64,000 bases of DNA from Escherichia coli (GTDB taxonomy: Bacteria > Pseudomonadota > Gammaproteobacteria > Enterobacterales > Enterobacteriaceae), in assembly GCF_003334785.1 (NCBI RefSeq), contig NZ_QOWV01000008.1; one strand, 5' to 3'. Below the pieces are notes generated by a model. That model searched no databases. It was given only the letters and a program-made list of their open reading frames with translations, and was not told the origin of the DNA. The translations under genes were made by a program, and so were the position numbers. Of this stretch, positions 2,569 to 50,370 are shown piece after piece; positions within the stretch are counted from its first letter, which is position 1; every line of letters begins with the position of its first letter.

Positions 2569-3258
2569 ATGACTCTCAATAAAACCGATCGCATTGTCAT
2601 TACGCTGGGTAAACAGATCGTTCACGGCAAATACGTGCCAGGCTCGCCGCTTCCGGCTGAGGCGGAACTCTGTGAGGAGTTTGCAACCTCGCGCAACATC
2701 ATCCGTGAGGTGTTCCGTTCGCTGATGGCGAAGCGGCTGATTGAAATGAAACGTTATCGCGGGGCGTTTGTGGCACCGCGTAACCAGTGGAATTACCTCG
2801 ACACTGACGTACTGCAATGGGTGCTGGAAAATGACTACGACCCACGGCTTATCAGTGCCATGAGCGAAGTGCGAAATCTGGTGGAACCGGCGATTGCCCG
2901 TTGGGCAGCAGAGCGCGCGACTTCCAGCGATCTGGCGCAGATTGAATCGGCGCTGAACGAGATGATTGCCAACAATCAGGACCGCGAAGCGTTTAACGAA
3001 GCGGATATTCGCTACCACGAGGCGGTGCTGCAGTCGGTGCATAACCCGGTGTTACAGCAACTTAGCATTGCGATCAGTTCGCTGCAGCGGGCGGTTTTTG
3101 AACGAACCTGGATGGGCGATGAGGCCAACATGCCGCAAACGCTCCAGGAACATAAGGCGCTGTTCGATGCGATACGACATCAGGACGGCGATGCGGCAGA
3201 GCAGGCGGCGCTTACCATGATCGCCAGCTCGACACGAAGGTTAAAGGAAATCACATGA
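2569..3258 (+). CDS. dgoR: GntR-family galactonate operon repressor DgoR
   Basis: 229-aa ORF with N-terminal GntR-type HTH region, immediately upstream of dgoKAD. Confidence 0.9.
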   Translation: MTLNKTDRIVITLGKQIVHGKYVPGSPLPAEAELCEEFATSRNIIREVFRSLMAKRLIEMKRYRGAFVAPRNQWNYLDTDVLQWVLENDYDPRLISAMSEVRNLVEPAIARWAAERATSSDLAQIESALNEMIANNQDREAFNEADIRYHEAVLQSVHNPVLQQLSIAISSLQRAVFERTWMGDEANMPQTLQEHKALFDAIRHQDGDAAEQAALTMIASSTRRLKEIT

Positions 3259-4132
3259 CAGCTCGCTACATCGCAATTGACTGGGGATCGACCAATCTGC
3301 GCGCCTGGCTTTATCAGGGCGACCACTGCCTGGAGAGCAGGCAATCAGAAGCAGGCGTCACGCGCCTGAACGGAAAATCTCCGGCTGCGGTGTTAGCAGA
3401 AGTCACGACCGACTGGCGTGAAGAGAAAACGCCAGTGGTAATGGCAGGAATGGTTGGCAGCAACGTCGGCTGGAAAGTTGCACCGTATTTATCTGTTCCT
3501 GCCTGTTTTTCGTCTATTGGCGAACAATTAACGTCAGTTGGCGACAATATCTGGATTATTCCCGGATTATGTGTCTCTCATGACGATACCACAATGTGAT
3601 GCGCGGCGAAGAAACACAATTGATCGGCGCGCGAGCTCTGGCTCCTTCCTCTCTTTATGTCATGCCCGGAACCCATTGCAAATGGGTGCAGGCCGATAGC
3701 CAGCAAATCAACGATTTTCGCACCGTGATGACCGGTGAATTACATCATTTACTGTTAAATCACTCATTGATTGGCGCAGGTTTGCCGCCGCAGGAAAACT
3801 CTGCCGATGCCTTCACAGCTGGCCTTGAGCGTGGTCTTAATACGCCCGCCATATTGCCGCAGCTTTTTGAAGTTCGCGCCTCGCATGTGCTGGGAACACT
3901 TCCCCGCGAACAGGTCAGCGAATTTCTCTCTGGTTTGTTGATTGGCGCAGAGGTCGCCAGTATGCGCGACTATGTGGCCCATCAACACGCCATCACCCTT
4001 GTCGCCGGAACATCGCTGACCGCGCGCTACCAGCAAGCCTTTCAGGCGATGGGTTGCGACGTGACGGCGGTGGCGGGCGACACGGCATTTCAGGCTGGTA
4101 TAAGGAGCATCGCTCATGCAGTGGCAAACTAA
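3255..4132 (+). pseudogene. dgoK: 2-dehydro-3-deoxygalactonokinase DgoK, split by an apparent 1-nt frameshift near 3588..3599
   Basis: Two adjacent ORFs 3255..3599 (114 aa) and 3596..4132 (178 aa) in different frames; restoring one base gives a single 292-aa reading frame. Confidence 0.7.
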
Positions 4133-17611: not shown

Positions 17612-19564
17612 ATGAATTCGTTACAAATCTTGAGTTTTGTCGGTTTTACGCTGCTGGTGGCGGTGATCACCTGGTGGAAGGTCCGCAAAACAGATACCGG
17701 ATCGCAACAAGGCTATTTTCTTGCCGGACGTTCACTAAAAGCGCCGGTTATTGCCGCTTCGTTAATGCTAACCAACCTTTCCACGGAACAACTGGTCGGC
17801 CTTTCCGGGCAGGCCTACAAAAGCGGCATGTCGGTGATGGGCTGGGAAGTGACTTCAGCGGTGACGCTGATCTTCCTCGCGCTAATCTTTTTACCGCGCT
17901 ATCTGAAGCGCGGCATTGCCACCATCCCCGATTTTCTGGAGGAACGTTATGATAAAACGACGCGTATTATCATCGACTTCTGCTTCCTAATTGCCACCGG
18001 CGTCTGCTTTCTGCCGATTGTTCTCTACTCCGGCGCGTTGGCGCTCAACAGCCTGTTTCACGTCGGGGAATCGCTACAGATTTCTCACGGTGCGGCTATC
18101 TGGCTACTGGTAATTTTGCTTGGTCTGGCGGGAATTTTGTATGCGGTGATCGGCGGACTGCGCGCAATGGCAGTGGCGGACTCCATCAACGGTATTGGGC
18201 TGGTTATCGGCGGGTTGATGGTGCCGGTATTTGGCCTGATCGCGATGGGCAAGGGCAGCTTTATGCAGGGCATTGAGCAACTCACCACCGTTCACGCCGA
18301 GAAATTAAACTCAATCGGTGGCCCGACCGATCCCTTGCCGATTGGCGCGGCATTTACCGGTTTGATTCTGGTGAACACCTTTTACTGGTGTACAAATCAG
18401 GGCATCGTGCAACGCACGCTGGCGTCAAAAAGCCTGGCGGAAGGGCAAAAGGGGGCGCTGTTAACGGCGGTGCTGAAAATGCTCGACCCGCTGGTACTGG
18501 TGCTGCCAGGGTTGATTGCGTTTCATCTGTATCAGGATTTACCGAAAGCCGACATGGCCTACCCGACGCTGGTCAATAACGTTCTGCCAGTGCCAATGGT
18601 GGGTTTCTTCGGCGCGGTGTTATTTGGTGCGGTGATCAGTACCTTCAACGGCTTTCTGAATAGCGCCAGTACGTTATTCAGTATGGGTATTTACCGTCGC
18701 ATCATTAACCAGAATGCCGAGCCGCAGCAGCTGGTCACCGTCGGGCGCAAATTTGGTTTCTTTATCGCTATCGTTTCGGTGCTGGTCGCGCCGTGGATCG
18801 CCAACGCGCCGCAGGGGCTGTATAGCTGGATGAAACAGCTCAACGGCATTTACAACGTGCCGCTGGTTACCATCATCATTATGGGCTTTTTCTTCCCGCG
18901 CATCCCGGCGCTGGCGGCAAAAGTAGCGATGGGGATTGGCATAATCAGCTACATCACCATCAACTATCTGGTGAAGTTCGACTTCCATTTCCTCTATGTG
19001 CTGGCCTGTACGTTCTGCATCAACGTGGTCGTGATGCTGGTGATCGGTTTTATCAAACCGCGCGCCACGCCGTTCACCTTCAAAGATGCGTTTGCGGTGG
19101 ACATGAAACCGTGGAAAAACGTCAAGATCGCGTCAATTGGCATCCTGTTCGCGATGATTGGCGTCTATGCCGGGCTGGCTGAATTCGGCGGCTACGGTAC
19201 GCGCTGGTTAGCGATGATCAGTTATTTCATTGCCGCCGTAGTGATTGTCTACCTGATTTTTGACAGCTGGCGGCGGAAGGTATTCGCTTTAATTCCGCCT
19301 ACACCTGTTCACCGGTTTGTACGCCTGCACGGGCCGGACTATTTACCGGTATCTACGCTAACCAGTCCGGCCCGTGGACCAACAACGTCGCGCCAGGCAA
19401 AAACATCTCCACTATGGGGCGCTACTTTAAGGATGCCGGCTATCACACCTGTTACATCGGCAAATGGCATCTCGACGGTCATGACTATTTCGGCACTGGC
19501 GAGTGTCCGCCGGAGTGGGACGCTGATTACTGGTTCGATGGGGCGAACTATCTTAGCGAACTGA
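17612..19564 (+). CDS. yidK: SSS-family solute:sodium symporter YidK with aberrant 3' extension into the yidJ region
   Basis: 650-aa ORF; first ~550 aa are a typical SSS membrane protein, the tail is an out-of-frame reading of the sulfatase gene. Confidence 0.7.
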   Translation: MNSLQILSFVGFTLLVAVITWWKVRKTDTGSQQGYFLAGRSLKAPVIAASLMLTNLSTEQLVGLSGQAYKSGMSVMGWEVTSAVTLIFLALIFLPRYLKRGIATIPDFLEERYDKTTRIIIDFCFLIATGVCFLPIVLYSGALALNSLFHVGESLQISHGAAIWLLVILLGLAGILYAVIGGLRAMAVADSINGIGLVIGGLMVPVFGLIAMGKGSFMQGIEQLTTVHAEKLNSIGGPTDPLPIGAAFTGLILVNTFYWCTNQGIVQRTLASKSLAEGQKGALLTAVLKMLDPLVLVLPGLIAFHLYQDLPKADMAYPTLVNNVLPVPMVGFFGAVLFGAVISTFNGFLNSASTLFSMGIYRRIINQNAEPQQLVTVGRKFGFFIAIVSVLVAPWIANAPQGLYSWMKQLNGIYNVPLVTIIIMGFFFPRIPALAAKVAMGIGIISYITINYLVKFDFHFLYVLACTFCINVVVMLVIGFIKPRATPFTFKDAFAVDMKPWKNVKIASIGILFAMIGVYAGLAEFGGYGTRWLAMISYFIAAVVIVYLIFDSWRRKVFALIPPTPVHRFVRLHGPDYLPVSTLTSPARGPTTSRQAKTSPLWGATLRMPAITPVTSANGISTVMTISALASVRRSGTLITGSMGRTILAN

Positions 19565-21961: not shown

Positions 21962-22455
21962 CAGGAAGTCAGGTCATTGATGCTGAAGAGGACAGGCATA
22001 AACTGGTTGTAGAGTACAAGGATGCTCTGCAACCTGCCGATTTTTATCACAATTTCAAACAGCGGGGCATCCGCTCCGTACAGCTCATTCCCTATCTTGA
22101 ATTTGATGACCGGGGCGATCTGACGGCCGCTTCGGTGACAGCAGAGCTGTGGGGGAAATTTTTAATTGCCCTGTTCGAGTGTTGGGTGCGGGCAGATATC
22201 AGTCGTATCTCGATTGAGCTTTTTGACGCCACCTTACAAAAATGGTGTGGCAGCGAAAACCCGCAACCGCGCTGTGACTGCCAGGCGTGCGACTGGCATC
22301 GCCTGTGCCCGCACGCTCGGCAGGAGACGCCAGACAGCGTGCTTTGTGCGGGCTATCAGGCGTTTTATTCTTACTCCGCACCGCATATGCGGGTGATGCG
22401 TGATCTGATAAAGCAGCATCGTTCTCCCATGGAGCTGATGACGATGCTGCGGTGA
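21958..22455 (+). CDS. yidF: Uncharacterized protein YidF
   Basis: 165-aa Cys-rich ORF overlapping yidG stop. Confidence 0.8.
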   Translation: MTGSQVIDAEEDRHKLVVEYKDALQPADFYHNFKQRGIRSVQLIPYLEFDDRGDLTAASVTAELWGKFLIALFECWVRADISRISIELFDATLQKWCGSENPQPRCDCQACDWHRLCPHARQETPDSVLCAGYQAFYSYSAPHMRVMRDLIKQHRSPMELMTMLR

Positions 22456-22462
22456 CGTGCGC

Positions 22463-23647
22463 TTAAACGGGCTGCCCCTGATGCGACATCCGCGTCGCCA
22501 GCGGCAGCCAGCACAGCACGATCAACAATCCCATTAAGGTCATCAACAACCCCAGGCTGCCCTGACCGGTTTGCGGCAACATCGCAGAGAGCGACGCCAG
22601 CACGCCGGAACCAATGTTTTGCAGACCGCCGACCAGCGCGCCAGCCGTGCCCGCCAGGAAGGGGAACGGCTCCATCGCGCCGCTGGTCGCCAGCGGAAAC
22701 AGCATCCCGGCACCGAAAAAGAACAGCGCGGCGGGAACGAGCAGCGTCCAGACATTCATCACGCCAAACCAGTCGGGGATCCACATCAGCAAGCCAGCCA
22801 GCAGGCAGCAGATAACCGACTGCCACATTAACGTGGAGAAGCGTTTATTGGGACGTCCGGCAAACCATGCGCCAAAAAACGCTGCCGGAATCGGCAGAAT
22901 AAACAAAATACTGACCGTCATACTGCTCAGCCCTAACACCGCGCCCATCAGCACGCCGGAGCAGGCTTCAAAGGCGGCAATCCCGGCCAGACCGCCAATC
23001 AGCATCAGCAAATAACAGTTAAAACCGCTGTTACCGAAAAGCGTTTTATAACTGGTAAGCAGGCGCGTGCGCGGTGCATCGACCGGACGCGTTTCCGGCA
23101 TCCAGCGGGCCATACTGAAGGTCACACCAGCACAAAGAACCAACAAAAAGAGATAACAGGCGCGCCAGTTCCACATCGTATCCAGCAGACCGCCGATTAG
23201 CGGTGCGAGCAACGGACTGACGAGAATCCCCATGTTTAACAGGCTGTTAGCATGGCGCAACTGTGTCCGTTCATATAAATCTCGCGGTAAAGTACGCGCC
23301 ATTACGCCGCCAACGCCGGTGCCCATCCCCTGCATCGCGCTGGCGGCAATCAACACCGTCAAACTGGAGGTCGTGACCGCGACCAGCGTTGCCAGCATAA
23401 AAATGGACATTCCGACGAGGATCACCGGTCGGCGGCCCACGCGGTCGGAAATCGGGCCATAAAACAGCTGTGAGACACCGTAAGTCAGCAGATAAGCGCC
23501 CATTACGCTCTGCACCGCCCCTTCACGGACGTTGAGATCGCGCGCCATATCGGCAATAGCTGGAATATAAATGGTTTGCGCCATCTGACCGACGGCCACG
23601 AGTAATACCAACATCAATAACAAATTGACGTTTCTTTGCCTTTTCAT
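22463..23647 (-). CDS. emrD: MFS multidrug efflux transporter EmrD
   Basis: ORF 22463..23653; start MKRQRNVNLLLMLVLL...; 394 aa. Confidence 0.9.
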   Translation of the reverse strand: MKRQRNVNLLLMLVLLVAVGQMAQTIYIPAIADMARDLNVREGAVQSVMGAYLLTYGVSQLFYGPISDRVGRRPVILVGMSIFMLATLVAVTTSSLTVLIAASAMQGMGTGVGGVMARTLPRDLYERTQLRHANSLLNMGILVSPLLAPLIGGLLDTMWNWRACYLFLLVLCAGVTFSMARWMPETRPVDAPRTRLLTSYKTLFGNSGFNCYLLMLIGGLAGIAAFEACSGVLMGAVLGLSSMTVSILFILPIPAAFFGAWFAGRPNKRFSTLMWQSVICCLLAGLLMWIPDWFGVMNVWTLLVPAALFFFGAGMLFPLATSGAMEPFPFLAGTAGALVGGLQNIGSGVLASLSAMLPQTGQGSLGLLMTLMGLLIVLCWLPLATRMSHQGQPV

Positions 23648-23821
23648 TATCACGGATGCTTTTATAAAAATAATTAGAATAAGTCACTACGCATTCCCAT
23701 AAATGCGGGAGAGGAATCTATCACATTGATGAATGTTAGCCAGATATACGCCAGGAATGGGGAATTGTTTAGCGGCAGAATATGTAAACAAAAGCGGCAA
23801 TAAATGTTGCCGGGAGAGATG

Positions 23822-23860
23822 GTAGGGCGGATAAGATGCGTCAGCATCGCATCCGACACC
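23822..23860. repeat. REP-like palindromic unit
   Basis: gtagggcggataagatgcgtcagcatcgcatccgaca motif. Confidence 0.4.
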
Positions 23861-23869
23861 AACCCGCAC

Positions 23870-23906
23870 GCTAAATATAAAAGGGGAGCGGTTTCCCGCT
23901 CCCCTT
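23870..23906 (-). terminator. Rho-independent terminator of tisB
   Basis: ggggagcgg..ccgctcccc hairpin with U-run on the minus strand. Confidence 0.5.
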
Positions 23907-23926
23907 TGGTGCGACTTGAATCTGAA

Positions 23927-24016
23927 TTACTTCAGGTATTTCAGAACAGCATCAAGCAGTTGCAGTGCTGCAACAATGAGTTTGAGGATAAGAATGGCGA
24001 TATCCACCAGGTTCAT
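23927..24016 (-). CDS. tisB: SOS-induced type I toxin TisB (29 aa)
   Basis: Minus-strand ORF encodes MNLVDIAILILKLIVAALQLLDAVLKYLK; below the 60-aa ORF-track cutoff. Confidence 0.9.
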   Translation of the reverse strand: MNLVDIAILILKLIVAALQLLDAVLKYLK

Positions 24017-24250
24017 ACGCGTCTCCTGTGGTTCAGGAGCACTGCCAGCTGACGTACCTTTCCGCTGCCTGTTGCCAGCTGTTGTGCACGCGGTATCTCA
24101 AGGAGAAACGTTGTGCTTGTTGACATAACACAGTGTGCTCACGCGGGGTTAAGGCGCTGACGGCACCACCCGTTTCAGCCAGGACTTAGTGCGCCGGGTA
24201 ACGATGCGGCCCCCGCATAACACATTGCGTACAGTGATATTATAGAAGTT

Positions 24251-24270
24251 TACTGTATAAATAAACAGTA
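24251..24270. promoter_or_regulatory. LexA box (SOS operator) at the tisAB / istR-2 promoters
   Basis: tactgtataaataaacagta matches the CTGT-N8-ACAG consensus. Confidence 0.8.
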
Positions 24271-24366
24271 ATATTTGGACAAAACGCAAACTGTGATCGA
24301 TACTCAACTATGCACTAAATACGTCAAAATTCGTGCCGAAATTGCGCGTTCTGCGCGGAACACGTA

Positions 24367-24452
24367 TACTTTCAGTGTTGACATAATACAGTGTGCTTTG
24401 CGGTTACCAGCCGCAGGCGACTGACGAAACCTCGCTCCGGCGGGGTTTTTTG
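24367..24452 (+). ncRNA. istR: IstR-1 antitoxin sRNA (approximate boundaries)
   Basis: tatact -10 element upstream; body is near-complementary to a copy at 24108..24135 inside the tisAB leader; ends at hairpin plus T6. Confidence 0.45.
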
Positions 24453-24580
24453 TTATCTGCAATTCAGTACAAAACGTGATCAACCCCTCAATTTTCCCTT
24501 GCTGAAAAATTTTCCATTGTCTCCCCTGTAAAGCTGTGCTTGTATAAATATTGTTAAACACAAAACCAACAAGGTCCCCA

Positions 24581-24679
24581 ATGACTACTTCCATGCTCAA
24601 CGCAAAACTACTACCAACTGCGCCATCCGCCGCAGTGGTCGTCGTGCGTGTGGTGGTGGTCGTCGGCAATGCGCCGTAG
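24581..24679 (+). CDS. ivbL: ilvB operon leader peptide
   Basis: 32-aa ORF MTTSMLNAKLLPTAPSAAVVVVRVVVVVGNAP with Val/Leu-rich control codons. Confidence 0.9.
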   Translation: MTTSMLNAKLLPTAPSAAVVVVRVVVVVGNAP

Positions 24680-24702
24680 GGACTGGAACAACACACGATT
24701 CC

Positions 24703-24737
24703 AAAACCCCGCCGGCGCAAACCGGGCGGGGTTTTTC
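24703..24737 (+). terminator. ilvB attenuator terminator
   Basis: ccccgccggcgcaaaccgggcgggg hairpin followed by T5. Confidence 0.75.
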
Positions 24738-24784
24738 GTTTAAGCATCTCCCGGAAAGTCGGCCCAGAAGAAAAGGACTGGAGC

Positions 24785-26473
24785 ATGGCAAGTTCGGGCA
24801 CAACATCGACGCGTAAGCGCTTTACCGGCGCAGAATTTATCGTTCATTTCCTGGAACAGCAGGGCATTAAGATTGTGACAGGCATTCCGGGCGGTTCTAT
24901 CCTGCCTGTTTACGATGCCTTAAGCCAAAGCACGCAAATCCGCCATATTCTGGCCCGTCATGAACAGGGCGCGGGCTTTATCGCTCAGGGAATGGCGCGC
25001 ACCGACGGTAAACCGGCGGTCTGTATGGCCTGTAGCGGACCGGGTGCGACTAACCTGGTGACCGCCATTGCCGATGCGCGGCTGGACTCCATCCCGCTGA
25101 TTTGCATCACTGGTCAGGTTCCCGCCTCGATGATCGGCACCGACGCCTTCCAGGAAGTGGACACCTACGGCATCTCTATCCCCATCACCAAACACAACTA
25201 TCTGGTCAGACATATCGAAGAACTCCCGCAGGTCATGAGCGATGCCTTCCGCATTGCGCAATCAGGCCGCCCAGGCCCGGTGTGGATAGACATTCCTAAG
25301 GATGTGCAAACGGCAGTTTTTGAGATTGAAACACAGCCCGCTATGGCAGAAAAAGCCGCCGCCCCCGCCTTTAGCGAAGAAAGCATTCGTGACGCAGCGG
25401 CGATGATTAACGCTGCCAAACGCCCGGTGCTTTATCTGGGCGGCGGTGTGATCAATGCGCCCGCACGGGTGCGTGAACTGGCGGAGAAAGCGCAACTGCC
25501 TACCACCATGACTTTAATGGCGCTGGGCATGTTGCCAAAAGCGCATCCGTTGTCGCTGGGTATGCTGGGGATGCACGGCGTGCGCAGCACCAACTATATT
25601 TTGCAGGAGGCGGATTTGTTGATAGTGCTCGGTGCGCGTTTTGATGACCGGGCGATTGGCAAAACCGAGCAGTTCTGTCCGAATGCCAAAATCATTCATG
25701 TCGATATCGACCGTGCAGAGCTGGGTAAAATCAAGCAGCCGCACGTGGCGATTCAGGCGGATGTTGATGACGTGCTGGCGCAGTTGATCCCGCTGGTGGA
25801 AGCGCAACCGCGTGCAGAGTGGCACCAGTTGGTAGCGGATTTGCAGCGTGAGTTTCCGTGTCCAATCCCGAAAGCGTGCGATCCGTTAAGCCATTACGGC
25901 CTGATCAACGCCGTTGCCGCCTGTGTCGATGACAATGCAATTATCACCACCGACGTTGGTCAGCATCAGATGTGGACCGCGCAAGCTTATCCGCTCAATC
26001 GCCCACGCCAGTGGCTGACCTCCGGTGGGCTGGGCACGATGGGTTTTGGCCTGCCTGCGGCGATTGGCGCTGCGCTGGCGAACCCGGATCGCAAAGTGTT
26101 GTGTTTCTCCGGCGACGGCAGCCTGATGATGAATATTCAGGAGATGGCGACCGCCAGTGAAAATCAGCTGGATGTCAAAATCATTCTGATGAACAACGAA
26201 GCGCTGGGGCTGGTGCATCAGCAACAGAGTCTGTTCTACGAGCAAGGCGTTTTTGCCGCCACCTATCCGGGCAAAATCAACTTTATGCAGATTGCCGCCG
26301 GATTCGGCCTCGAAACCTGTGATTTGAATAACGAAGCCGATCCGCAGGCTTCATTGCAGGAAATCATCAATCGCCCTGGCCCGGCGCTGATCCATGTGCG
26401 CATTGATGCCGAAGAAAAAGTTTACCCGATGGTGCCGCCAGGTGCGGCGAATACTGAAATGGTGGGGGAATAA
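24785..26473 (+). CDS. ilvB: Acetolactate synthase I large subunit
   Basis: 562-aa ThDP-dependent enzyme. Confidence 0.95.
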   Translation: MASSGTTSTRKRFTGAEFIVHFLEQQGIKIVTGIPGGSILPVYDALSQSTQIRHILARHEQGAGFIAQGMARTDGKPAVCMACSGPGATNLVTAIADARLDSIPLICITGQVPASMIGTDAFQEVDTYGISIPITKHNYLVRHIEELPQVMSDAFRIAQSGRPGPVWIDIPKDVQTAVFEIETQPAMAEKAAAPAFSEESIRDAAAMINAAKRPVLYLGGGVINAPARVRELAEKAQLPTTMTLMALGMLPKAHPLSLGMLGMHGVRSTNYILQEADLLIVLGARFDDRAIGKTEQFCPNAKIIHVDIDRAELGKIKQPHVAIQADVDDVLAQLIPLVEAQPRAEWHQLVADLQREFPCPIPKACDPLSHYGLINAVAACVDDNAIITTDVGQHQMWTAQAYPLNRPRQWLTSGGLGTMGFGLPAAIGAALANPDRKVLCFSGDGSLMMNIQEMATASENQLDVKIILMNNEALGLVHQQQSLFYEQGVFAATYPGKINFMQIAAGFGLETCDLNNEADPQASLQEIINRPGPALIHVRIDAEEKVYPMVPPGAANTEMVGE

Positions 26474-26476
26474 GCC

Positions 26477-26767
26477 ATGCAAAACACAACTCATGACAAC
26501 GTAATTCTGGAGCTCACCGTTCGCAACCATCCGGGCGTAATGACCCACGTTTGTGGCCTTTTTGCCCGCCGCGCTTTTAACGTTGAAGGCATTCTTTGTC
26601 TGCCGATTCAGGACAGCGACAAAAGCCATATCTGGCTACTGGTCAATGACGACCAGCGTCTGGAGCAGATGATAAGCCAAATCGATAAGCTGGAAGATGT
26701 CGTGAAAGTGCAGCGTAATCAGTCCGATCCGACGATGTTTAACAAGATCGCGGTGTTTTTTCAGTAA
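26477..26767 (+). CDS. ilvN: Acetolactate synthase I small (regulatory) subunit
   Basis: 96-aa ACT-domain ORF directly after ilvB. Confidence 0.95.
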
Positions 26768-26842
26768 CCGCTCAAGGCTTGAACAACATCGCGCTTATCG
26801 TTAAGGTAAGCGCGTATTTTTTTTACCCGCCAGGACAAGACC

Positions 26843-27433
26843 ATGATCACCGTTGCCCTTATAGACGATCACCTCATCGTCCGCTCCGGCTTTGCGCAGC
26901 TGCTGGGGCTGGAACCTGATTTGCAGGTAGTTGCCGAGTTTGGTTCGGGGCGCGAGGCGCTGGCGGGGCTGCCGGGGCGCGGTGTGCAGGTGTGTATTTG
27001 CGATATCTCCATGCCCGATATCTCCGGTCTGGAGCTGCTAAGCCAGCTGCCGAAAGGTATGGCGACGATTATGCTCTCCGTTCACGACAGTCCTGCGCTG
27101 GTTGAGCAGGCGCTTAACGCGGGGGCACGCGGCTTTCTTTCCAAACGCTGTAGCCCGGATGAACTCATTGCTGCGGTGCATACGGTTGCCACGGGCGGCT
27201 GTTATCTGACGCCGGATATTGCCATTAAACTGGCATCCGGTCGTCAGGACCCGCTAACCAAACGTGAACGCCAGGTGGCGGAAAAACTGGCGCAAGGAAT
27301 GGCGGTGAAAGAGATTGCCGCCGAACTGGGCTTGTCACCGAAAACGGTACACGTCCATCGCGCCAATCTGATGGAAAAACTGGGCGTCAGTAACGACGTA
27401 GAGCTGGCGCGCCGCATGTTTGATGGCTGGTGA
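26843..27433 (+). CDS. uhpA: Response regulator UhpA (NarL/FixJ family)
   Basis: 196-aa ORF with receiver domain and LuxR-type HTH. Confidence 0.9.
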
Positions 27434-28935
27434 TGAAGACGTTGTTCTCCCGCTTAATTACCGTTATTGCCTGCTTTTTTATCTTCTCTGCCGCATGGTT
27501 TTGCCTGTGGAGTATCAGCCTGCATCTGGTTGAGCGCCCTGATATGGCGGTGCTGTTATTTCCGTTTGGTCTGCGTCTGGGGCTAATGCTGCAATGCCCG
27601 CGCGGATACTGGCCCGTATTGCTGGGCGCGGAGTGGCTGCTGATTTACTGGCTAACGCAGGCGGTCGGTTTAACCCATTTTCCGTTATTGATGATCGGTA
27701 GTTTACTGACGTTACTGCCCGTAGCGCTGATCTCGCGCTATCGCCATCAGCGTGACTGGCGCACCTTGCTGTTACAGGGGGCGGCGTTAACGGCGGCGGC
27801 GTTGTTGCAGTCGCTGCCCTGGCTTTGGCACGGCAAAGAGTCGTGGAATGCGCTGTTGCTGACTTTAACTGGCGGCCTGACGCTGGCCCCGATATGTCTG
27901 GTGTTCTGGCACTATCTCGCCAATAACACCTGGCTGCCGCTCGGTCCGTCACTGGTTTCTCAGCCAATCAACTGGCGCGGGCGACATCTGGTCTGGTACT
28001 TGCTGCTGTTTGTTATCAGTCTCTGGCTCCAGTTGGGATTGCCGGACGAACTGTCGCGCTTTACGCCATTCTGTCTGGCGCTGCCGATTATCGCGCTGGC
28101 CTGGCACTATGGTTGGCAAGGGGCGCTGATTGCGACGTTGATGAACGCCATCGCGCTGATCGCCAGTCAAACCTGGCGCGATCATCCGGTGGATTTATTG
28201 CTCTCGCTGCTGGTGCAAAGTCTGACAGGGTTGTTGCTTGGCGCTGGCATCCAGCGGTTGCGTGAACTTAACCAGTCGCTGCAAAAGGAACTGGCGCGCA
28301 ATCAGCATCTGGCTGAACGGTTGCTGGAAACCGAAGAGAGCGTGCGCCGTGATGTGGCGCGTGAGCTGCATGATGATATCGGTCAGACCATCACTGCTAT
28401 TCGTACTCAGGCGGGCATTGTTCAGCGGCTGGCGGCAGATAACGCCAGCGTGAAGCAGAGCGGGCAGCTCATCGAACAACTATCGCTGGGCGTTTACGAC
28501 GCGGTGCGCCGTTTGTTGGGTCGGTTACGTCCGCGCCAGTTGGATGATCTCACCCTGGAGCAGGCCATCCGCTCACTGATGCGGGAAATGGAGCTGGAAG
28601 GGCGCGGTATTGTCAGCCATCTCGAATGGCGAATCGATGAATCAGCGTTAAGCGAAAACCAGCGCGTGACGCTGTTTCGTGTCTGCCAGGAAGGGCTGAA
28701 CAACATTGTGAAACATGCTGATGCCAGCGCGGTCACCCTGCAAGGCTGGCAGCAGGATGAACGGTTGATGCTGGTTATTGAAGACGATGGCAGCGGTTTG
28801 CCGCCGGGTTCCGGGCAACAAGGTTTTGGCCTCACCGGAATGCGCGAGCGCGTAACGGCGCTGGGTGGCACATTACACATTTCCTGTCTGCACGGCACGC
28901 GTGTCAGCGTTTCTCTACCTCAACGCTATGTCTAA
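27433..28935 (+). CDS. uhpB: Sensor histidine kinase UhpB
   Basis: About 500-aa membrane kinase; start overlaps uhpA stop. Confidence 0.9.
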
Positions 28936-41273: not shown

Positions 41274-41401
41274 AAAATTGACATATAACAATTTGATTCC
41301 AATCGTTTATATTTATCAGCTCTAATTCATTTATACACATCCTTATACACATAATATCTGTCGATTAATTTTTACACGTATCTTCACGCACGTTAACTCA
41401 G

Positions 41402-41695
41402 GAAAAAAATTTTTTTTCGAAAGAACTGTTCACACTGTTCACCTTTCTGTTTTCTCCTTTTATTTCAGTTTGATAGGTGGTGAATAATGGGTGAAGGGTG
41501 AACATTCGATTCTTCACCTCCGGCATTCTGCCGGTGTGACTTGTGCAGGGGATTAATCCTCCGCACTGAAATCACACAGGGAGAAAAAAGTTTTTTTGAT
41601 TTGATTGTTCATCTTTCGTTTTTCTCTTTTAATTTCAGTGTGATAACGGGTGAATATACGGTGAAGGGTGAACAGTGGATTGTTCACTTTCGGGG
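41402..41695. repeat. crr-like region: two imperfect ~120-bp direct repeats with TGTTCAC motifs
   Basis: Units at about 41402..41522 and 41579..41695 share tgttcac / gggtgaa / ggtgaagggtgaaca blocks. Confidence 0.6.
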
Positions 41696-41703
41696 AATTC
41701 AGG

Positions 41704-41731
41704 GATAAAAAAAGACCGGCAGATGCCGGTC
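41704..41731 (-). terminator. Rho-independent terminator after alpha
   Basis: gaccggcagatgccggtc hairpin with U-run on the minus strand. Confidence 0.6.
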
Positions 41732-41738
41732 AGATGAG

Positions 41739-44072
41739 TCAGGCTGTTGCAGGGTCGTCACATTTCGGCAGCCAGTCGCCGTAGCTTTCCTCTTTCAGCG
41801 TCAGGTTGGTCTGTATCCCCTGTTTGGTATGGCGCTTCTCGTAATTCAGTCCGTATTCCTTCAGCATCACCGGCAGCCCCAGCCCGAACATTTTCAGACT
41901 GAGTACATTCCGGTAGCCGTTTGCCTCCATGTAGGCCAGATAGGCGTGATAGAGGTATTTACGGTAATTACGCGGGATGATACTGGCGTTCCCCATATAC
42001 ATGCCGCTGGTCTGCGGCAGGGTTTCCAGATAGCCGATAAAATCAAACGTCGGGTCGGCATCCCGTTTGATGTTCAGTGCCTCGTCTGAGTTCTGCTGGG
42101 ACTGAAGCAGTGACCGGGCGAGCATCGGGTCGCTGAACTTCTGCATCAGGTAACGCACGATGACCGCCAGCTCGCGGGTGATTTTGTCCTTAAGCTGCGG
42201 GTCGCGCTCCTGCGGGGCTATCTGTTCCGGGAAGTGAATAATCACCCGCCGGCGTGACACGCCGCCGCTGCGGTCGGTGAAGCGCATCGGGTTATTGTTC
42301 ACGGCCAGAATCACCGCCGGGATGTGCGTGGAGTACGCATCCCGGTATTTCGGGTCAACGGACACCGCATCGCCGCCGGTGATGGCCTTGAGTCCGGCAC
42401 CGTCGCCGCTCCATTTTTCCTGGTCCGGCAGGCGTATCAGTGAGAAGCCAGTTAACGCGGCACGTTCACGCGGGGATTCCAGCGTCTCGATGGTGGCCGA
42501 CGTGGCGTTATCCTCACCGGCCAGCAGGGTGGCTATTTCGGCCATGATACTTTTGCCGCTGCCGCCGGGACCGGTCACCTCCAGAAAGAGCTGCCAGTCG
42601 TAGCGGTTTGCCAGCACCATAAACAGTGCGGCCAGAATCACGTCGCGTTTTTCCGCACGGCCACCGGCGGCACGGTCAAGCCAGCGCCAGAATGCGGGGG
42701 CGTGGGTTTCCAGCGTTTCACCTTCCACCGGCGGGGTGAAATCCACATCGCACAGGGCGCGCATCCAGTGTGACGGACTGTGCGGGTGGAACGTGCCGTT
42801 CTGCGTGTCGAGCACGCCGTTACGAAAGCCAATCAGGCGGCGGGAGGGGGCTTCCTGCTGCGGAATAATCAGCTTCAGGGTGTCCACCACGGAGGCCACC
42901 TTCCCGGAGGAGAACGGCGCGCGCAGACGCTGAAACAGCCCGGCCACATCCCGGGCAAAGTCCTGTGGTGGCAGCACCTTCCAGACACCATTTTCATAGC
43001 GGGACAGAAGCTGGCCGTTGGCATCGACCGCGAGCGCCTCGCCGTAATGCTCATAGATACGCATGGCCTTTTCGCTGGTACTCATGGCGGAAAACTCCGC
43101 TTCGCTCATGGTGTCGAACGGGCTTTCAGCCGGTGGCCGGATGGCATCATAAATGGCCTTACGGGTGGTTTCCCCGCCGTACTGCGTGAAGGCATCATTC
43201 CAGTCACCGAAGACCGGCGGCAGGGCAACAACGCCCTCACACGCATCTGCGGCTGCGGCGGCTTTTTTCTGGCCGTCACCGCTGAGGTCACGGTCTGCGG
43301 CAAGGACAATCTGACAGGCCGGATGCTTCTGCCGGGCAAGGCTGGCCAGAGAAAGGAGGTTCACGGAAGAAAGCGCCACCATCACCGTTTCACCGGTCAG
43401 GTGATGTACGGTAAGTGCGGTCGCGTATCCCTCCGCTATCCACAGACGTTTTCCGGCCTGATTCTGTCCTTCAAGGGTGTGACAGGTGCCCCTGACCTGT
43501 CCGCCTTTCAGGGTGCGCTTACGGCCGTCAGCACTGATTAACTGAAGGTTAACCAGTTCGCCGCTGTCGTCATACAGTGGCACCACAAGGTCACCGGCGC
43601 GCCAGCTCACGCCACCGGCTCTGTGTGTGCCGGTCAGCATCCGGCATTCCCGGCCGGGAAAGCCCTTGCGGGTCAGGTAGGCGTTACCGGTTCCGGGACG
43701 GGTTTTCGCCATCAGGGTTTGTGCCAGTGCGGCGGCGTTCTTCCGGGCGGCTTCTGTTTCAGCACCGGCGGCGGCCGTCACTGCCGGGTCAGCCGGGGGC
43801 AGGCAGCCGGTCACGGCAGCCACCTTTGCGGCCGCGTCGGACGGGGAAACACCAAACACCTTTTCAACCAGTTTCAGGCCGTCACCGGCACCACACTGAT
43901 TGCAGTACCAGGTGCCGCGCCCCTCCCTGTCATCAAAACGGAAACGGTCACTTCCGCCACAGACCGGACAGGGCTGATGACGGTTTTTCAGCACCTGAAT
44001 CCCCAGCGACGGGAGAATACGCGGCCAGTGGCCGAGCGCATGGCTGACGGTGGCGGTTACGTTCATTTTCAT
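41739..44072 (-). CDS. P4 alpha-type primase-helicase
   Basis: 777-aa ORF; N-terminal zinc-ribbon CPVCGG..CNQCG, Walker A GPGGSGKS. Confidence 0.9.
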   Translation of the reverse strand: MKMNVTATVSHALGHWPRILPSLGIQVLKNRHQPCPVCGGSDRFRFDDREGRGTWYCNQCGAGDGLKLVEKVFGVSPSDAAAKVAAVTGCLPPADPAVTAAAGAETEAARKNAAALAQTLMAKTRPGTGNAYLTRKGFPGRECRMLTGTHRAGGVSWRAGDLVVPLYDDSGELVNLQLISADGRKRTLKGGQVRGTCHTLEGQNQAGKRLWIAEGYATALTVHHLTGETVMVALSSVNLLSLASLARQKHPACQIVLAADRDLSGDGQKKAAAAADACEGVVALPPVFGDWNDAFTQYGGETTRKAIYDAIRPPAESPFDTMSEAEFSAMSTSEKAMRIYEHYGEALAVDANGQLLSRYENGVWKVLPPQDFARDVAGLFQRLRAPFSSGKVASVVDTLKLIIPQQEAPSRRLIGFRNGVLDTQNGTFHPHSPSHWMRALCDVDFTPPVEGETLETHAPAFWRWLDRAAGGRAEKRDVILAALFMVLANRYDWQLFLEVTGPGGSGKSIMAEIATLLAGEDNATSATIETLESPRERAALTGFSLIRLPDQEKWSGDGAGLKAITGGDAVSVDPKYRDAYSTHIPAVILAVNNNPMRFTDRSGGVSRRRVIIHFPEQIAPQERDPQLKDKITRELAVIVRYLMQKFSDPMLARSLLQSQQNSDEALNIKRDADPTFDFIGYLETLPQTSGMYMGNASIIPRNYRKYLYHAYLAYMEANGYRNVLSLKMFGLGLPVMLKEYGLNYEKRHTKQGIQTNLTLKEESYGDWLPKCDDPATA

Positions 44073-44086
44073 GGTGTTGTTCTCCT

Positions 44087-44407
44087 TCAGTGCAGTACCG
44101 GCGCTTTTATGTGACGGGCACAGAGTTCATCCATCACAACCAGCCCGAGAAAGGACAGCGACGGCGCGGCCTTCAGGGGGCCGGATTCCATTAAATCTTC
44201 CAGCAGGGCACAGGCTATCTGACGCCCTTTTTCCTCACCGTGCTGGCGCAGATAAAAGCCTTCCAGCTCAGCGGCGATGGCCGCCTCCAGTGACTCAAGG
44301 GTGAGATGCGGGTAGCGGTGCTGACGTTCGCACACGGTCAGCCAGGCACAGGCGACAGCGCGACGGTAAAGGGCAGCGCGTAAGACGGGCGGTAAGGGGG
44401 TTTTCAT
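44087..44407 (-). CDS. Hypothetical protein, P4 left-operon position (orf106-like)
   Basis: 106-aa ORF immediately upstream of alpha, same strand. Confidence 0.5.
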
Positions 44408-44542
44408 TTGTTTTCCTCCCTGTGACAGATGACTGCATTCCGTGCCGGTTGCATTAACTGATAAGGCATATCTGCGTCTCCTGAAGACGTGCGTATCCCT
44501 GCGCGAATACGCACATTTAATTTTTCGGGTGTCGTTTTTTAA

Positions 44543-44998
44543 TTACAGATAATTGCGGTAACTGTTATCCGGGGTGATTTCCGGGTCAGGCTCCGTGCGG
44601 GGAATTTCCCGCCATTCCCGCGCCACCGGTGCCGCCCGGCTGACCGGAACAGGGTCCTGCGGGTAAATATCCAGATATTTCTCCCGCCATTTCTGTAATT
44701 CCGGGTCTCCGGCCATTTCTTTCAGTACCGCATGCCGGTTTACGGGGCTGCGTTTAAACAGGTCAGGACGGTCACAGGTAAATTCCCGCAGAAAACGCCC
44801 CAGCGGGATGTCTGTGGTGCGCCCGTCGGCGATGATACGCACAAGGATACTGAATTTACGGCGGTACGGGTTCCAGACAATTTCCGGGCAGCGGTACGGC
44901 ATTTCCCACGGAATACCGTCTTCCAGAATGCCGACCACGGCCACATCGGGAAAACCGGCAGAACGGTAAATCTCACCGGGCTGGGGAAAATCAAACAT
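44543..44998 (-). CDS. Hypothetical protein, P4 left-operon position (orf151-like)
   Basis: 151-aa ORF co-oriented with alpha. Confidence 0.5.
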   Translation of the reverse strand: MFDFPQPGEIYRSAGFPDVAVVGILEDGIPWEMPYRCPEIVWNPYRRKFSILVRIIADGRTTDIPLGRFLREFTCDRPDLFKRSPVNRHAVLKEMAGDPELQKWREKYLDIYPQDPVPVSRAAPVAREWREIPRTEPDPEITPDNSYRNYL

Positions 44999-45857
44999 GC
45001 GTCCTGTCTCCCCGGTCTTTCTGCTGGGCGAGAAAATCGCGGCACAGGCCTTTGGCTTTCAGCTCATTCAGCACAAAATCAATATCTTCATTCAGGTAAC
45101 TGAAAATATGCGGAATGTAGAGCTGATGCAGGCCGGAGAGTTCACGGTGAATCAAATCACCCCCAACAAACTGGGATACGGCGCTGGCGCGGTTGAGCTT
45201 ATGGTAAGCCTCAATGCTGAGGTGTTCACGGGCGTCATGACGCGCTGAGACGGTCTGAGGGGCTTTTTTATTACGCACGGGACACCTCCACCACCGGCAG
45301 ACGGGCAGCAAGGGAGAGCACATAGTCACGGACAAGGGAACGGCGGGCGCTGCGTTCATCACCGGCGACGGTGCGAAGCATACAGATACGGGGATGACGG
45401 TCTGTGCGACGGACAGCCGCAAACACAAAGACAAATTCAGGGTGTGAGGGGGTAAGGGTTGTAGCCATGATGGCAGCCTCCTGTGAATAGCAAATAACGC
45501 TATCGCCGGAGTTCTCACGCTCGATGGCGATAGCCCAGACGGGGGTGAGAATACCGGCTTCACAGGATACCGGCCAGCCCGGAGGCTGCCCCGCCTGAGC
45601 TACCATTGACTCAGAGGCATAACATGCGATTGCGAACAGGATCATACCTGCACGGCAAACCACACGCCACACCATAATCTGGTGCTCTGTGGCGTTGATT
45701 GCGACACAAAAAAAGACGCATGGCGCGTCATATGTCGCCTGTGAATTGCTCGGGTTCTCACGCCCGGCTGCCGATTTTGCGGCAGCGGAAAAACTATATC
45801 CGCAAATGCCGGAAAAAGGCAAGCCAGAAAAAGGGAGTTTTTGCAGAGCGGGCATCA

Positions 45858-46124
45858 TCATGCGTCGTACCCCCGTTTGCGTCCGGCAATGCGTCCGGCC
45901 ATCCATGCGGTGACTTCAGAGTGCAGCCAGGCCACATTTTTACCGCCAAGACTCACCTGCGGCGGAAATTCCCCCTTACGGATGAGTTCGTAGATGGTCG
46001 AGCGTGACAGGCCGCACAGGTGCATCACTTCCGGAAGACGTAAAAAACGCTCCTGTGTGATGTCCGGCAGCGGCATCAGTGGCGTCACAGGGGCGGGAGA
46101 CGGGGAAGAAAAAACAGCTTGCAT
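45858..46124 (-). CDS. AlpA/Vis-family small DNA-binding regulator
   Basis: 88-aa ORF with HTH-like [16 protein letters not shown]. Confidence 0.65.
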
Positions 46125-46403
46125 CGGGCTACCTCGTTAATGTCCATACAGCACCGGATAAGTCCGTCCGGCTTCAGGTAGCGCTTTATTTTGTGAATAT
46201 TTTCAGCAGACGCAACAGGGGGGATTTGTTCCGGCAGCCTTACAATGCTTGTGTATTTTTTGTTCATCTCCACTTAAAGTCATTTAAAGCCACTTAAAGC
46301 AATTCGTAATTTTTATAGTGAAATACAAATCGTTTTTTCTTATTCATTCCCGGCGAATTAATAAAAACAAACAGTAATAAACAGCACAAAAAGCCCATCA
46401 ACG

Positions 46404-46508
46404 GGTGAACAGTGGTGAACAGACGGTGAACAGTCATTACTGCGATTGTTCACCCTTTAACTTACTGTATTACTTATCTTTTTTCTTATGGTGAACAGAG
46501 GTGAACAG
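46404..46508. repeat. ori-like iteron cluster (GGTGAACAG octamer copies)
   Basis: Five direct copies of ggtgaacag plus one inverted ttgttcacc within about 105 bp, between divergent vis and sid. Confidence 0.6.
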
Positions 46509-46676
46509 TAAAATATAAAAAAACAAACAGTAAGCCGGTTTTTCCTACGACCTTTTCCTGGCTTGCCGGTGTGAGGATGAGTCTCCTGTGTCAGGGCTGG
46601 CACATCTGCAATGCGTCGTGTTGTTGTCCGGTGTACGTCACAATTTTCTTAACCTGAAGTGACGAGGAGCCGGAAA

Positions 46677-47411
46677 ATGTCTGACAACACCATCCCTGAA
46701 TATCTGCAACCCGCACTGGCACAACTGGAAAAGGCCAGAGCCGCCCACCTTGAGAACGCCCGACTGATGGATGAGACCGTCACGGCCATTGAACGGGCAG
46801 AGCAGGAAAAAAATGCGCTGGCGCAGGCCGACGGAAATGACGCTGATGACTGGCGCACAGCCTTTCGTGCAGCCGGTGGTGTCCTGAGCGACGAGCTGAA
46901 ACAGCGCCACATTGAGCGCGTGGCACGCCGGGAGCTGGTACAGGAATATGACAATCTGGCCGTGGTGCTGAATTTTGAACGTGAACGCCTGAAAGGGGCG
47001 TGTGACAGCACGGCTACCGCCTACCGGAAGGCACATCATCACCTTCTGAGTCTGTATGCAGAGCATGAGCTGGAACACGCCCTGAATGAAACCTGTGAGG
47101 CGCTTGTCCGGGCAATGCATCTGAGCATTCTGGTACAGGAAAATCCGATCGCCAACACCACCGGCCATCAGGGCTACGTCGCACCCGATAAGGCTGTCAT
47201 GCAGCAGGTGAAATCATCGCTGGAACAGAAAATTAAACAGATGCAAATCAGCCTCAGCGGCGAGCCGGTTCTCCGGCTGACCGGACTGTCAGCGGCAACA
47301 CTTCCGCACATGGATTATGAGGTGGCAGGCACACCGGCACAGCGCAAGGTGTGGCAGGACAAAATAGACCAGCAGGGAGCAGAGCTTAAGGCCAGAGGAC
47401 TGCTGTCATGA
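46677..47411 (+). CDS. P4 Sid-like capsid size-determination scaffold
   Basis: ORF 46659..47411; ATG at 46677 preceded by gaggag RBS; 244 aa, coiled-coil-rich. Confidence 0.8.
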   Translation: MSDNTIPEYLQPALAQLEKARAAHLENARLMDETVTAIERAEQEKNALAQADGNDADDWRTAFRAAGGVLSDELKQRHIERVARRELVQEYDNLAVVLNFERERLKGACDSTATAYRKAHHHLLSLYAEHELEHALNETCEALVRAMHLSILVQENPIANTTGHQGYVAPDKAVMQQVKSSLEQKIKQMQISLSGEPVLRLTGLSAATLPHMDYEVAGTPAQRKVWQDKIDQQGAELKARGLLS

Positions 47412-47908
47412 TTTACTGCCCGTCGTGTGGACATGTTGCTCACACCCGCCGCGCACATTTTATGGACGATGGCACCAAGATAATGATTGCACAGTGCCGG
47501 AATATTTATTGCTCTGCGACATTTGAAGCGAGTGAAAGCTTTTTCTCTGACAGTAAAGATTCAGGAATGGAATACATTTCAGGCAAACAGAGATACCGCG
47601 ATTCACTGACGTCAGCCTCCGGTAGCATGAAGCGCCCGAAAAGAATGCTTGTTACCGGATATTGTTGTCGGAGATGTAAAGGCCTTGCACTGTCAAGAAC
47701 ATCGCGGCGTCTGTCTCAGGAAGTCACCGAGCGTTTTTATGTGTGCACGGATCCGGGCTGTGGTCTGGTGTTTAAAACGCTTCAGACCATCAACCGCTTC
47801 ATTGTCCGCCCGGTCACGCCGGACGAACTGGCAGAAAGCCTGCATGAAAAACAGGAACTGCCGCCAGTACGCTTAAAAACACAATCATATTCGCTGCGTC
47901 TGGAATGA
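47408..47908 (+). CDS. P4 Delta-like late transactivator (tandem Ogr-type zinc finger)
   Basis: 166-aa ORF with two CxxC..CxxC blocks (CPSCGH..CRNIYC and CRRCKG..CTDPGC). Confidence 0.8.
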   Translation: MIYCPSCGHVAHTRRAHFMDDGTKIMIAQCRNIYCSATFEASESFFSDSKDSGMEYISGKQRYRDSLTSASGSMKRPKRMLVTGYCCRRCKGLALSRTSRRLSQEVTERFYVCTDPGCGLVFKTLQTINRFIVRPVTPDELAESLHEKQELPPVRLKTQSYSLRLE

Positions 47909-47981
47909 GGGCTGCCGGTTAACACCGGCCGTCGCCGCACACCGTATTTTTATTCTTCAGCATGATGAGAAAGAGATAACG

Positions 47982-48554
47982 ATGGAAAGCACAGCCTTAC
48001 AGCAGGCCTTTGACACCTGTCAGAATAACAAAGCAGCATGGCTGCAACGCAAAAATGAGCTGGCTGCGGCCGAACAGGAATATCTGCGGCTTCTGTCAGG
48101 AGAAGGCAGAAACGTCAGTCGCCTGGACGAATTACGCAATATTATCGAAGTCAGAAAATGGCAGGTGAATCAGGCCGCCGGTCGTTATATTCGTTCGCAT
48201 GAAGCCGTTCAGCACATCAGCATCCGCGACCGGCTGAATGATTTTATGCAGCAGCACGGCACAGCACTGGCGGCGGCACTGGCACCGGAGCTGATGGGCT
48301 ACAGTGAGCTGACGGCCATTGCCCGAAACTGTGCCATACAGCGTGCCACAGATGCCCTGCGTGAAGCCCTTCTGTCCTGGCTTGCGAAGGGTGAAAAAAT
48401 TAATTATTCCGCACAGGATAGCGACATTTTAACGGCCATTGGATTCAGACCTGACGCGGCTTCGGTGGATGACAGCCGTGAAAAATTCACCCCTGCGCAG
48501 AACATGATTTTTTCGCGTAAAAGTGCGCAACTGGCATCACGTCAGTCTGTGTAA
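47982..48554 (+). CDS. P4 Psu-like polarity suppression / capsid decoration protein
   Basis: 190-aa ORF following delta. Confidence 0.8.
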   Translation: MESTALQQAFDTCQNNKAAWLQRKNELAAAEQEYLRLLSGEGRNVSRLDELRNIIEVRKWQVNQAAGRYIRSHEAVQHISIRDRLNDFMQQHGTALAAALAPELMGYSELTAIARNCAIQRATDALREALLSWLAKGEKINYSAQDSDILTAIGFRPDAASVDDSREKFTPAQNMIFSRKSAQLASRQSV

Positions 48555-48718
48555 AATTCCCCGAAAATCCGCCCGTTTTTACTGAAAAAAGCCATGCATC
48601 GATAAGGTGCATGGCTTTGCATGCGTTTTCCTGCCTCATTTTCTGCAGATCGCGCCACGCCCGGCGTGGCCTGAGCGTGTCAGCGCAACTGCATTAAAAC
48701 CATCCCACAAAGCGGGCG

Positions 48719-48737
48719 GGCGAGGCGGGGAAAGCAC
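48719..48737. other. cos site (P2/P4-type 19-nt cohesive end sequence)
   Basis: ggcgaggcggggaaagcac. Confidence 0.6.
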
Positions 48738-48979
48738 TGCGCGCTTACTTAGATGCGTGAATTTATTTATATCACTGAAGTATATCCCTAAGCTCATTTC
48801 TCAAAGGGCCTATGGTTGCACAAGGTTGTACCATGGCATTCAAAACTTTTTAAACCAAGAATGACAATTTCATTATTAGGCCGGAATAGTTACTAATTTT
48901 AGTATAGGTTGCGATTGTTTAACGCATTTTTTATTATGATGCAGATTTTATTATTACTAATGGGGTGCAAAAAACACGT

Positions 48980-50269: not shown

Positions 50270-50301
50270 TTAAGCATTGTAATTATATTTGATTTTTTCT
50301 A

Positions 50302-50335
50302 CAGGCTTGGACGGAATCATATAGCTCCAAGCCTG
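50302..50335. terminator. Hairpin between the two convergent cargo ORFs
   Basis: Perfect 10-bp stem caggcttgga..tccaagcctg with 14-nt loop. Confidence 0.45.
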
Positions 50336-50370
50336 TTGTGTCGGTATCAAAAAGAAAGTGATATTATTGT

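Follow-up and report, generated by a model that had tools for sequence, protein, structure and literature searches.

The leader attenuator of the ilvB operon of Escherichia coli K-12 is a textbook case, studied since the early 1980s, annotated in RefSeq and already used as a biosensor of valine and leucine. Work on it is said to go back to Friden and Freundlich and to Hauser and Hatfield in the years 1982 to 1985, and polymerase pausing at the ilvB attenuator was reportedly studied by Hauser et al. in 1985 (cited in PMC11347164). The leader, ivbL, has been characterized as a transcriptional attenuator responsive to valine and leucine (PMC11187965; PMC9299463; PMC11347164; PMC6449708), and both the mechanism of ilvBN attenuation and the dose response to valine and leucine have been described (PMC11187965). 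An ivbL-gfp fusion was repressed by feeding of valine and leucine and not by that of six other amino acids, within a modest attenuation range of approximately 32–58% reduction (PMC11187965), and a translational ivbL fusion was expressed (PMC9299463). Attenuation of ilvBN by valine and leucine only is unlike that of ilvGMEDA (PMC6449708), whose leader ilvL (ilvLXGMEDA) shares with ivbL a leader peptide, alternative hairpins, an intrinsic terminator and the pathway, and is also a GcvB target (PMC9299463). However, ilvL responds to isoleucine, leucine and valine (PMC6449708), whereas ivbL has no isoleucine codon and responds to valine and leucine only, and the two sequences are unrelated. For the uORF/three-hairpin attenuator of Corynebacterium glutamicum ilvBNC, a Val/Leu/Ile-rich leader peptide, alternative hairpins and, downstream of these, an ilvB homologue have been described (PMC11857589; PMC10272879). 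This bacterium belongs to a different phylum, its operon includes ilvC and there is no sequence similarity to ivbL, the principle alone being analogous. In leuL (leuABCD), trpL, hisL and thrL, as in ivbL, ribosome stalling at tandem cognate codons chooses between antiterminator and terminator, although their regulatory codons and sequences differ from those of ivbL; several such leaders have Rfam families. Like ivbL, leuL uses the rare leucine codon CUA as its sensor.

In this study, we report the comparison of these systems with a locus of E. coli lying in a stretch of 64 kb, referred to as the window. With near certainty, the element is the ivbL leader and ribosome-mediated transcription attenuator of ilvBN, identical to that of K-12. 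Positions 24300–24746, which include the promoter region, 5′UTR, ORF, antiterminator and terminator, were 100% identical to K-12 MG1655, and both DNA and protein of ivbL were those of the RefSeq 'ilvB operon leader peptide IvbL' of that strain (WP_001300753.1). The 32-aa leader ORF upstream of ilvB proposed in the preliminary description is therefore K-12 IvbL, and alignment to K-12 ivbL gave base-for-base identity of ORF and hairpin, with no disrupting divergence. The ivbL attenuator is already known and no part of its anatomy departs here from the known element. The case serves as a positive control, in which a regulatory ORF of less than 60 aa and its terminator were correctly read from the sequence alone. 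A query of 351 bases found the region in 5,419 of 5,426 complete E. coli genomes, the matched features being annotated as ivbL and ilvB. The gene ivbL lies 105 nt upstream of ilvB, and the gene order matches that of K-12 (emrD, tisB/istR, ivbL, ilvB, ilvN, uhpA). The neighbouring features are the following.

23927–24016, minus strand: tisB toxin ORF MNLVDIAILILKLIVAALQLLDAVLKYLK, directly upstream of the ilvB promoter together with istR.
24322–24451, plus strand: istR antitoxin sRNA (Rfam RF01400, 150 bits, full length).
24785–26473, plus strand: ilvB, acetohydroxyacid synthase I, 562 aa.
26477–26767, plus strand: ilvN, acetohydroxyacid synthase I, 96 aa.

Element and neighbours are those of the K-12 ivbL-ilvBN attenuator, with a single change from C in K-12 to T at position 24747, which is the only difference over 24300–24800 and also over 22000–28000. 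A candidate substitution in IlvB (ILMNN instead of ILLNN) was rejected, since 24747 is the sole difference in the latter interval. On the plus strand of 24556–24741, no leader family (Leu, His, Thr, Trp and others) was matched in Rfam at an E value of 1 or below. No curated Rfam model of the ivbL leader was found, and the lack of a match therefore does not count against the mechanism.

The leader ORF and the elements that accompany it are listed below.

24556–24580, plus strand: 5′UTR of ivbL, with a CA-rich stretch and the Shine-Dalgarno sequence AAGG at 24571–24574, 6 nt before the ATG.
24581–24679, plus strand: ivbL leader peptide ORF, with ATG at 24581, TAG at 24677–24679, and 32 codons plus the stop.
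24608–24613, plus strand: leucine-sensing codons 10–11, a tandem of the rare codon CUA.
24635–24664, plus strand: regulatory valine run VVVV R VVVVV, codons 19–28 (five GUG, four GUC and one CGU for arginine).

The translation of 24581–24679 is MTTSMLNAKLLPTAPSAAVVVVRVVVVVGNAP, with nine valine, three leucine and no isoleucine residues. The peptide had been described as rich in both valine and leucine; this holds for valine, but not for leucine, with just three residues, of which the tandem CUA CUA constitutes the conserved pair. Owing to an in-frame TTG at 24551, the ORF listing extends the leader to 42 aa. From either start (32 or 42 aa) the ORF stays below 60 aa, in agreement with its reported absence from the track of ORFs of at least that length. 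When windows of 10 codons with at least nine valines were sought in the six frames of the 64 kb, the run of the leader was the sole instance, against approximately 5 × 10−6 expected. At the level of the sequence, a biosynthetic operon is preceded by a short leader ORF that carries a Shine-Dalgarno sequence of its own, as is expected of an attenuator.

Upstream of the leader, two promoter elements were recognized.

24475–24490, plus strand: candidate cAMP-CRP site of the ilvB promoter, CGTGATCAACCCCTCA.
24540–24549, plus strand: conserved TTGTATAAAT, probable extended −10 of the ivbL-ilvBN promoter, from upstream alignments.

The ilvB promoter is reportedly CRP-dependent, according to literature of the 1980s. 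The candidate site has three mismatches to TGTGA-N6-TCACA, a level at which the number of matches in the 64-kb window is that of chance (214 found, 212 expected), and the support for the site therefore comes solely from the conservation of the aligned upstream regions. Of 27 such sequences, at least 85% retain the left half GTGATC (24476–24481), and the CRP-type site was near-perfect in several species, the right half being degenerate in E. coli. In the alignments of Enterobacterales upstream regions, the block TGTG-TTGTATAAAT (24535–24549) was nearly invariant and the TTG at 24517–24519 was invariant. Transcription probably starts near 24555–24557, approximately 25 nt before the ATG of the leader, from which a terminated leader of approximately 180–185 nt is predicted. 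The terminator of istR (24426–24449) ends approximately 100 nt before this putative start.

The leader ORF is followed by a terminator.

24703–24741, plus strand: intrinsic terminator (the attenuator), with the stem-loop at 24703–24735 and the U-run at 24732–24736 and 24739–24741.

The stem-loop has the sequence AAAACCCCGCCGG-CGCAAA-CC(G)GGCGGGGUUUU and begins 23 bases past the ivbL stop codon. It consists of a 5′ arm (24703–24715), a loop (24716–24721) and a 3′ arm (24722–24735) with one bulged G, and it is G+C-rich, with a ΔG of −21.1 kcal/mol, then TTTTT CG TTT at 24732–24741. The distance from the terminator to the start of ilvB (24785) is 44 nt. Tied with others, it was the strongest hairpin before any run of five T on either strand of the window. 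The strong terminator hairpin reported upstream of ilvB is thus present, and the limits given in the preliminary description to leader and attenuator (24581–24740) end within 1 nt of the last T. A simple consensus terminator scan did not detect the attenuator hairpin, nor did a consensus promoter scan detect the ivbL-ilvBN promoter. The bulged G likely explains the former result, given that without the bulge the stem shortens to 7 bp and the loop grows to 11 nt, beyond the limits of the scan. Both misses are probably due to such limits (a bulged stem and a weak −35) and do not mean that terminator or promoter is absent.

Folding of the leader RNA gave three further structures, all of them predicted in silico.

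24573–24684, plus strand: protector structure of the untranslated leader, from the minimum free energy (MFE) fold of the full leader.
24670–24719, plus strand: antiterminator, ΔG −21.9 kcal/mol.
24684–24703, plus strand: inner hairpin with the CA-rich loop GGAACAACACACGAUUCC, inside the antiterminator.

The MFE fold of the full leader of 191 nt had an energy of −72.4 kcal/mol (z = −3.15), and none of 200 dinucleotide shuffles was as good. In this fold, calculated with no ribosome, the start of the ORF (24581–24589 and onward) pairs with the valine run (24655–24663 and inward), a small hairpin forms at 24664–24676 and a closing stem joins GGUCCC (24573–24578) to GGGACU (24679–24684). The end of the ORF, which provides the 5′ strand of the antiterminator, is thereby tied up and the terminator is intact. 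In the antiterminator, UGCGCCG (24670–24676) pairs with CGGCGCA (24713–24719) and GGG (24679–24681) with CCC (24708–24710), and the inner hairpin is enclosed. Antiterminator and terminator are mutually exclusive, as the former shares 24703–24719 with the 5′ arm of the latter. The 5′ strand of the antiterminator coincides with the end of the ORF (its final two and one-third sense codons and the stop), and for this reason a ribosome finishing the peptide blocks it.

The dependence on ribosome position was followed by folding the nascent transcript up to 24721, just before the 3′ arm of the terminator emerges, with the footprint of the ribosome (A-site plus 14 nt) masked. With the A-site at codon 26 or earlier, that is, at the leucine codons or at any valine codon up to the eighth, the antiterminator formed with −21.0 to −21.9 kcal/mol; when the upstream RNA was also left unmasked, total energies were lower than those of the antiterminator alone. 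At codon 27 the antiterminator was lost and the nascent RNA had −11.4 kcal/mol, followed by −7.3 kcal/mol at codon 28 and −0.4 kcal/mol at the stop codon. An antiterminator is thus predicted at 24670–24719 whose formation depends on the position of the ribosome as attenuation requires, and the classical attenuation put forward in the preliminary description is supported by these folds together with the identity to K-12. Equilibrium folding of the masked full leader was rejected as a test of the switch, the terminator being retained at almost every stall and flipped only with the A-site at codons 25–26. As the terminator wins at equilibrium for most stalls, which is to be expected of so stable a hairpin, the switch must, like that of other attenuators, be kinetic and operate during transcription. 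When the truncated transcript was folded with no ribosome, the antiterminator was also the lowest-energy fold, and termination without translation would therefore need a protector that forms first and persists.

According to the model that we favour, a ribosome would move along the 32 codons of the leader as RNA polymerase transcribes the approximately 60 nt behind it. When charged tRNA-Val (24635–24664) or tRNA-Leu (24608–24613) is scarce, the ribosome would stall inside the ORF, leaving its end (24670–24681) free to pair with 24708–24719 once this has been made, in an antiterminator of approximately −22 kcal/mol. The 5′ arm of the terminator would then be taken up and the polymerase would read through into ilvBN. 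When both valine and leucine are plentiful, the ribosome would reach the last codons or the TAG (24677–24679), its footprint would cover 24670–24691 and the antiterminator would be blocked, so that the terminator (24703–24735) with its U-run could form and transcription would stop near 24736–24741. If there is no translation, the protector would tie up the segment 24670–24681 and termination would also be favoured. The model would rest on a kinetic, co-transcriptional order of folding, an order that we infer, and the in vivo response of the ilvBN attenuator to valine and leucine is taken from the literature.

Orthologous leaders were sought by scanning one genome per species with a degenerate pattern of the valine run (four GTN, CGN and five GTN). 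The pattern alone retrieved 27 loci of Enterobacterales, among unrelated chance matches of high G+C content. The genera with the leader include Escherichia, Citrobacter, Enterobacter, Klebsiella, Kluyvera, Leclercia and Cedecea, and further Serratia, Yersinia, Pectobacterium, Dickeya, Brenneria and Morganella. At all 27 loci the run lay inside a short ORF with its stop codon 104–167 nt upstream of an ilvB homologue, whose product had 64–98% amino-acid identity. ATG was the start codon of the leader, except in Dickeya, Pectobacterium, Brenneria and Morganella, in which it was GTG. The C-terminal half of the peptide, AAVVVVRVVVVVG(N/S/I/K)(A/T)P, was conserved and the N-terminal half poorly so. 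The CUA CUA pair was found in 28 of 28 leaders, from Escherichia to Morganella, though the residues flanking it vary. The valine run was equally conserved (28/28) and, across genera, hardly varied even in the third position of its codons. In the DNA, the nearly invariant parts were this run, the end of the ORF, GCGCCGUA(G/A), the GGG and the terminator, AACCCCGCCGGCG...CCG(G/A)GCGGGGUUU. These comparative results could help to annotate ivbL in other Enterobacterales.

The terminator was present in all 28 leaders, and in every one of them the predicted antiterminator had −21 to −29 kcal/mol when the ribosome stalled at valine, vs. 0 to −3.4 kcal/mol when it stood at the stop codon. Of the 13 pairs of the terminator, 10 never varied among 26 distinct sequences, with 94% of cells paired. 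Of the 10 outer pairs of the antiterminator (the 7-bp helix plus GGG:CCC), 7 never varied. Covariation is uninformative for both, because these helices almost never vary, and their invariance could reflect other constraints. Only the inner hairpin (24684–24703) showed compensatory changes, with three pairs changed on both sides. Fourfold-degenerate sites were identical to those of E. coli in 88% of cases in the leader (337/383, counted over its last 16 codons) vs. 55% in ilvB of the same genomes (3292/5986), the species not being independent of one another. This contrast within genomes, more informative than covariation, shows selection on the RNA or on the codons themselves and lends the alternative helices indirect support.

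A second layer of regulation has been reported for this transcript. A site for the R1 region of the small RNA GcvB lies in the 5′UTR of ivbL, 'proximal to the AUG' (PMC11347164; PMC9299463). The ivbL-ilvB spacer is also bound, GcvB (R1 region) having been ligated to 5′UTR and spacer, and R1-dependent repression by GcvB was seen with translational fusions of both ivbL and ilvB, that of ivbL being described as weak (PMC9299463). The spacer contains RNase E cleavage sites, and the decay is opposed by GcvB, which stabilizes the transcript (PMC11347164). In the present sequence, CA-rich stretches occur at 24556–24570 and 24689–24697. Duplexes were calculated with a GcvB sequence of 199 bits in Rfam. 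The best R1 duplex fell in the loop of the inner hairpin (24684–24700, −19.6 kcal/mol), and that with the 5′UTR (24556–24580, −16.9 kcal/mol) was among the top five positions. Neither was better than those of shuffled leaders, so that these energies are consistent with the published sites and do not constitute independent evidence. The inner hairpin is likely the GcvB R1 site of the spacer.

It seems doubtful to us that the terminated leader acts in trans as a GcvB sponge or decoy, or that the change C24747T has a regulatory effect. The former was considered because of the excess of fourfold-site conservation in the leader over ilvB, the presence of two CA-rich motifs of GcvB type and the place of the leader among the RNAs ligated most frequently to GcvB; a terminated leader of approximately 180 nt could in such a case link sufficiency of valine and leucine to the wider amino-acid regulon. 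With regard to the latter, T24747 is located in the 44 nt that separate the terminator from ilvB, 6 nt after the final T of the tail and outside the helices of the attenuator. The 70-mer with this T (24715–24784) had no exact match in any of the 5,419 complete E. coli genomes carrying the region, and the aligned position is variable among genera. In the predicted fold of the ilvB 5′UTR the base is unpaired, with −17.7 kcal/mol for both alleles. It lies where RNase E sites were reported. An effect of the change on cleavage by RNase E or on translation of ilvB is conceivable; most likely, the change is neutral or a sequencing error.

It is very unlikely that the element is mainly post-transcriptional, with GcvB pairing and RNase E decay setting the output of ilvBN and attenuation having a minor part. 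GcvB-ivbL chimeras are abundant in RIL-seq/CLASH data and the ivbL and ilvB fusions are repressed through R1 (PMC9299463), the spacer contains RNase E sites with GcvB-dependent stabilization (PMC11347164), CA-rich sequences are present at both places indicated above and the gfp fusion is attenuated over a modest range, as mentioned. However, such a layer is compatible with attenuation, and GcvB is regarded in those papers as an addition to it. The repression of ivbL by GcvB is weak and the R1 duplexes do not exceed those of shuffled leaders. It should also be considered that conservation within the leader is lowest in the CA-rich loop, while the valine run, the antiterminator and the terminator are nearly invariant. 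The notion that ivbL is a gene in its own right for a small protein, or an ORF arisen by chance, followed by a mere (or bidirectional) terminator with no sensing, is effectively refuted: an A-run and a T-run do flank the hairpin, making it terminator-like on both strands, and the minus strand gave sub-threshold, terminator-like Rfam matches (STnc310, 25 bits; 3′ end of P6, 22 bits), which were rejected as lying far below their gathering thresholds, but no minus-strand gene ends at this hairpin, the N-terminal half of the peptide is poorly conserved whereas codons and RNA are highly so, and the ORF is always immediately upstream of ilvB, with a valine run expected by chance at only about 5 × 10−6. 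Ribosome-mediated attenuation of ilvBN thus remains the reading that we adopt.

Some observations were made elsewhere in the window. To the left of the selC island (1–41273) the identity to K-12 was 99.97–99.98%, with 10 differences in 41 kb. A deletion of one base with respect to K-12 at 3588 splits dgoK into ORFs 3255–3599 and 3596–4132, and represents either a frameshifted pseudogene or a sequencing error. Approximately 143 bp of the yidK/yidJ junction of K-12 are missing at about 19260–19274; the frame of yidK is extended to 650 aa (17612–19564) and yidJ is left with an ORF of 414 aa from an internal ATG. A P4-like satellite prophage of 11.8 kb (41274–53073) is found at the selC tRNA gene (tRNA-Sec, 53078–53172, minus strand), flanked by the repeat TTGGCGGAAGATCACA at 41252 and 53077. 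Its genes include those of an integrase, a primase-helicase, Psu, an Icd-like protein and ogr/Delta. Two 'hypothetical' genes lie between psu and the integrase gene (48980–50269, plus strand, 429 aa; 50371–51744, minus strand, 457 aa), an interval that is the usual site of anti-phage cargo in P4-like elements. PADLOC defence models gave no match to these two cargo genes. Among the 5,426 complete E. coli genomes, only 10 carry 80% or more of the satellite prophage. On the right-hand side of the island (53074–64000) the identity to K-12 was 98.8%, with 127 differences in 10.9 kb, and the mosaic boundary in K-12 identity coincides with the selC island.
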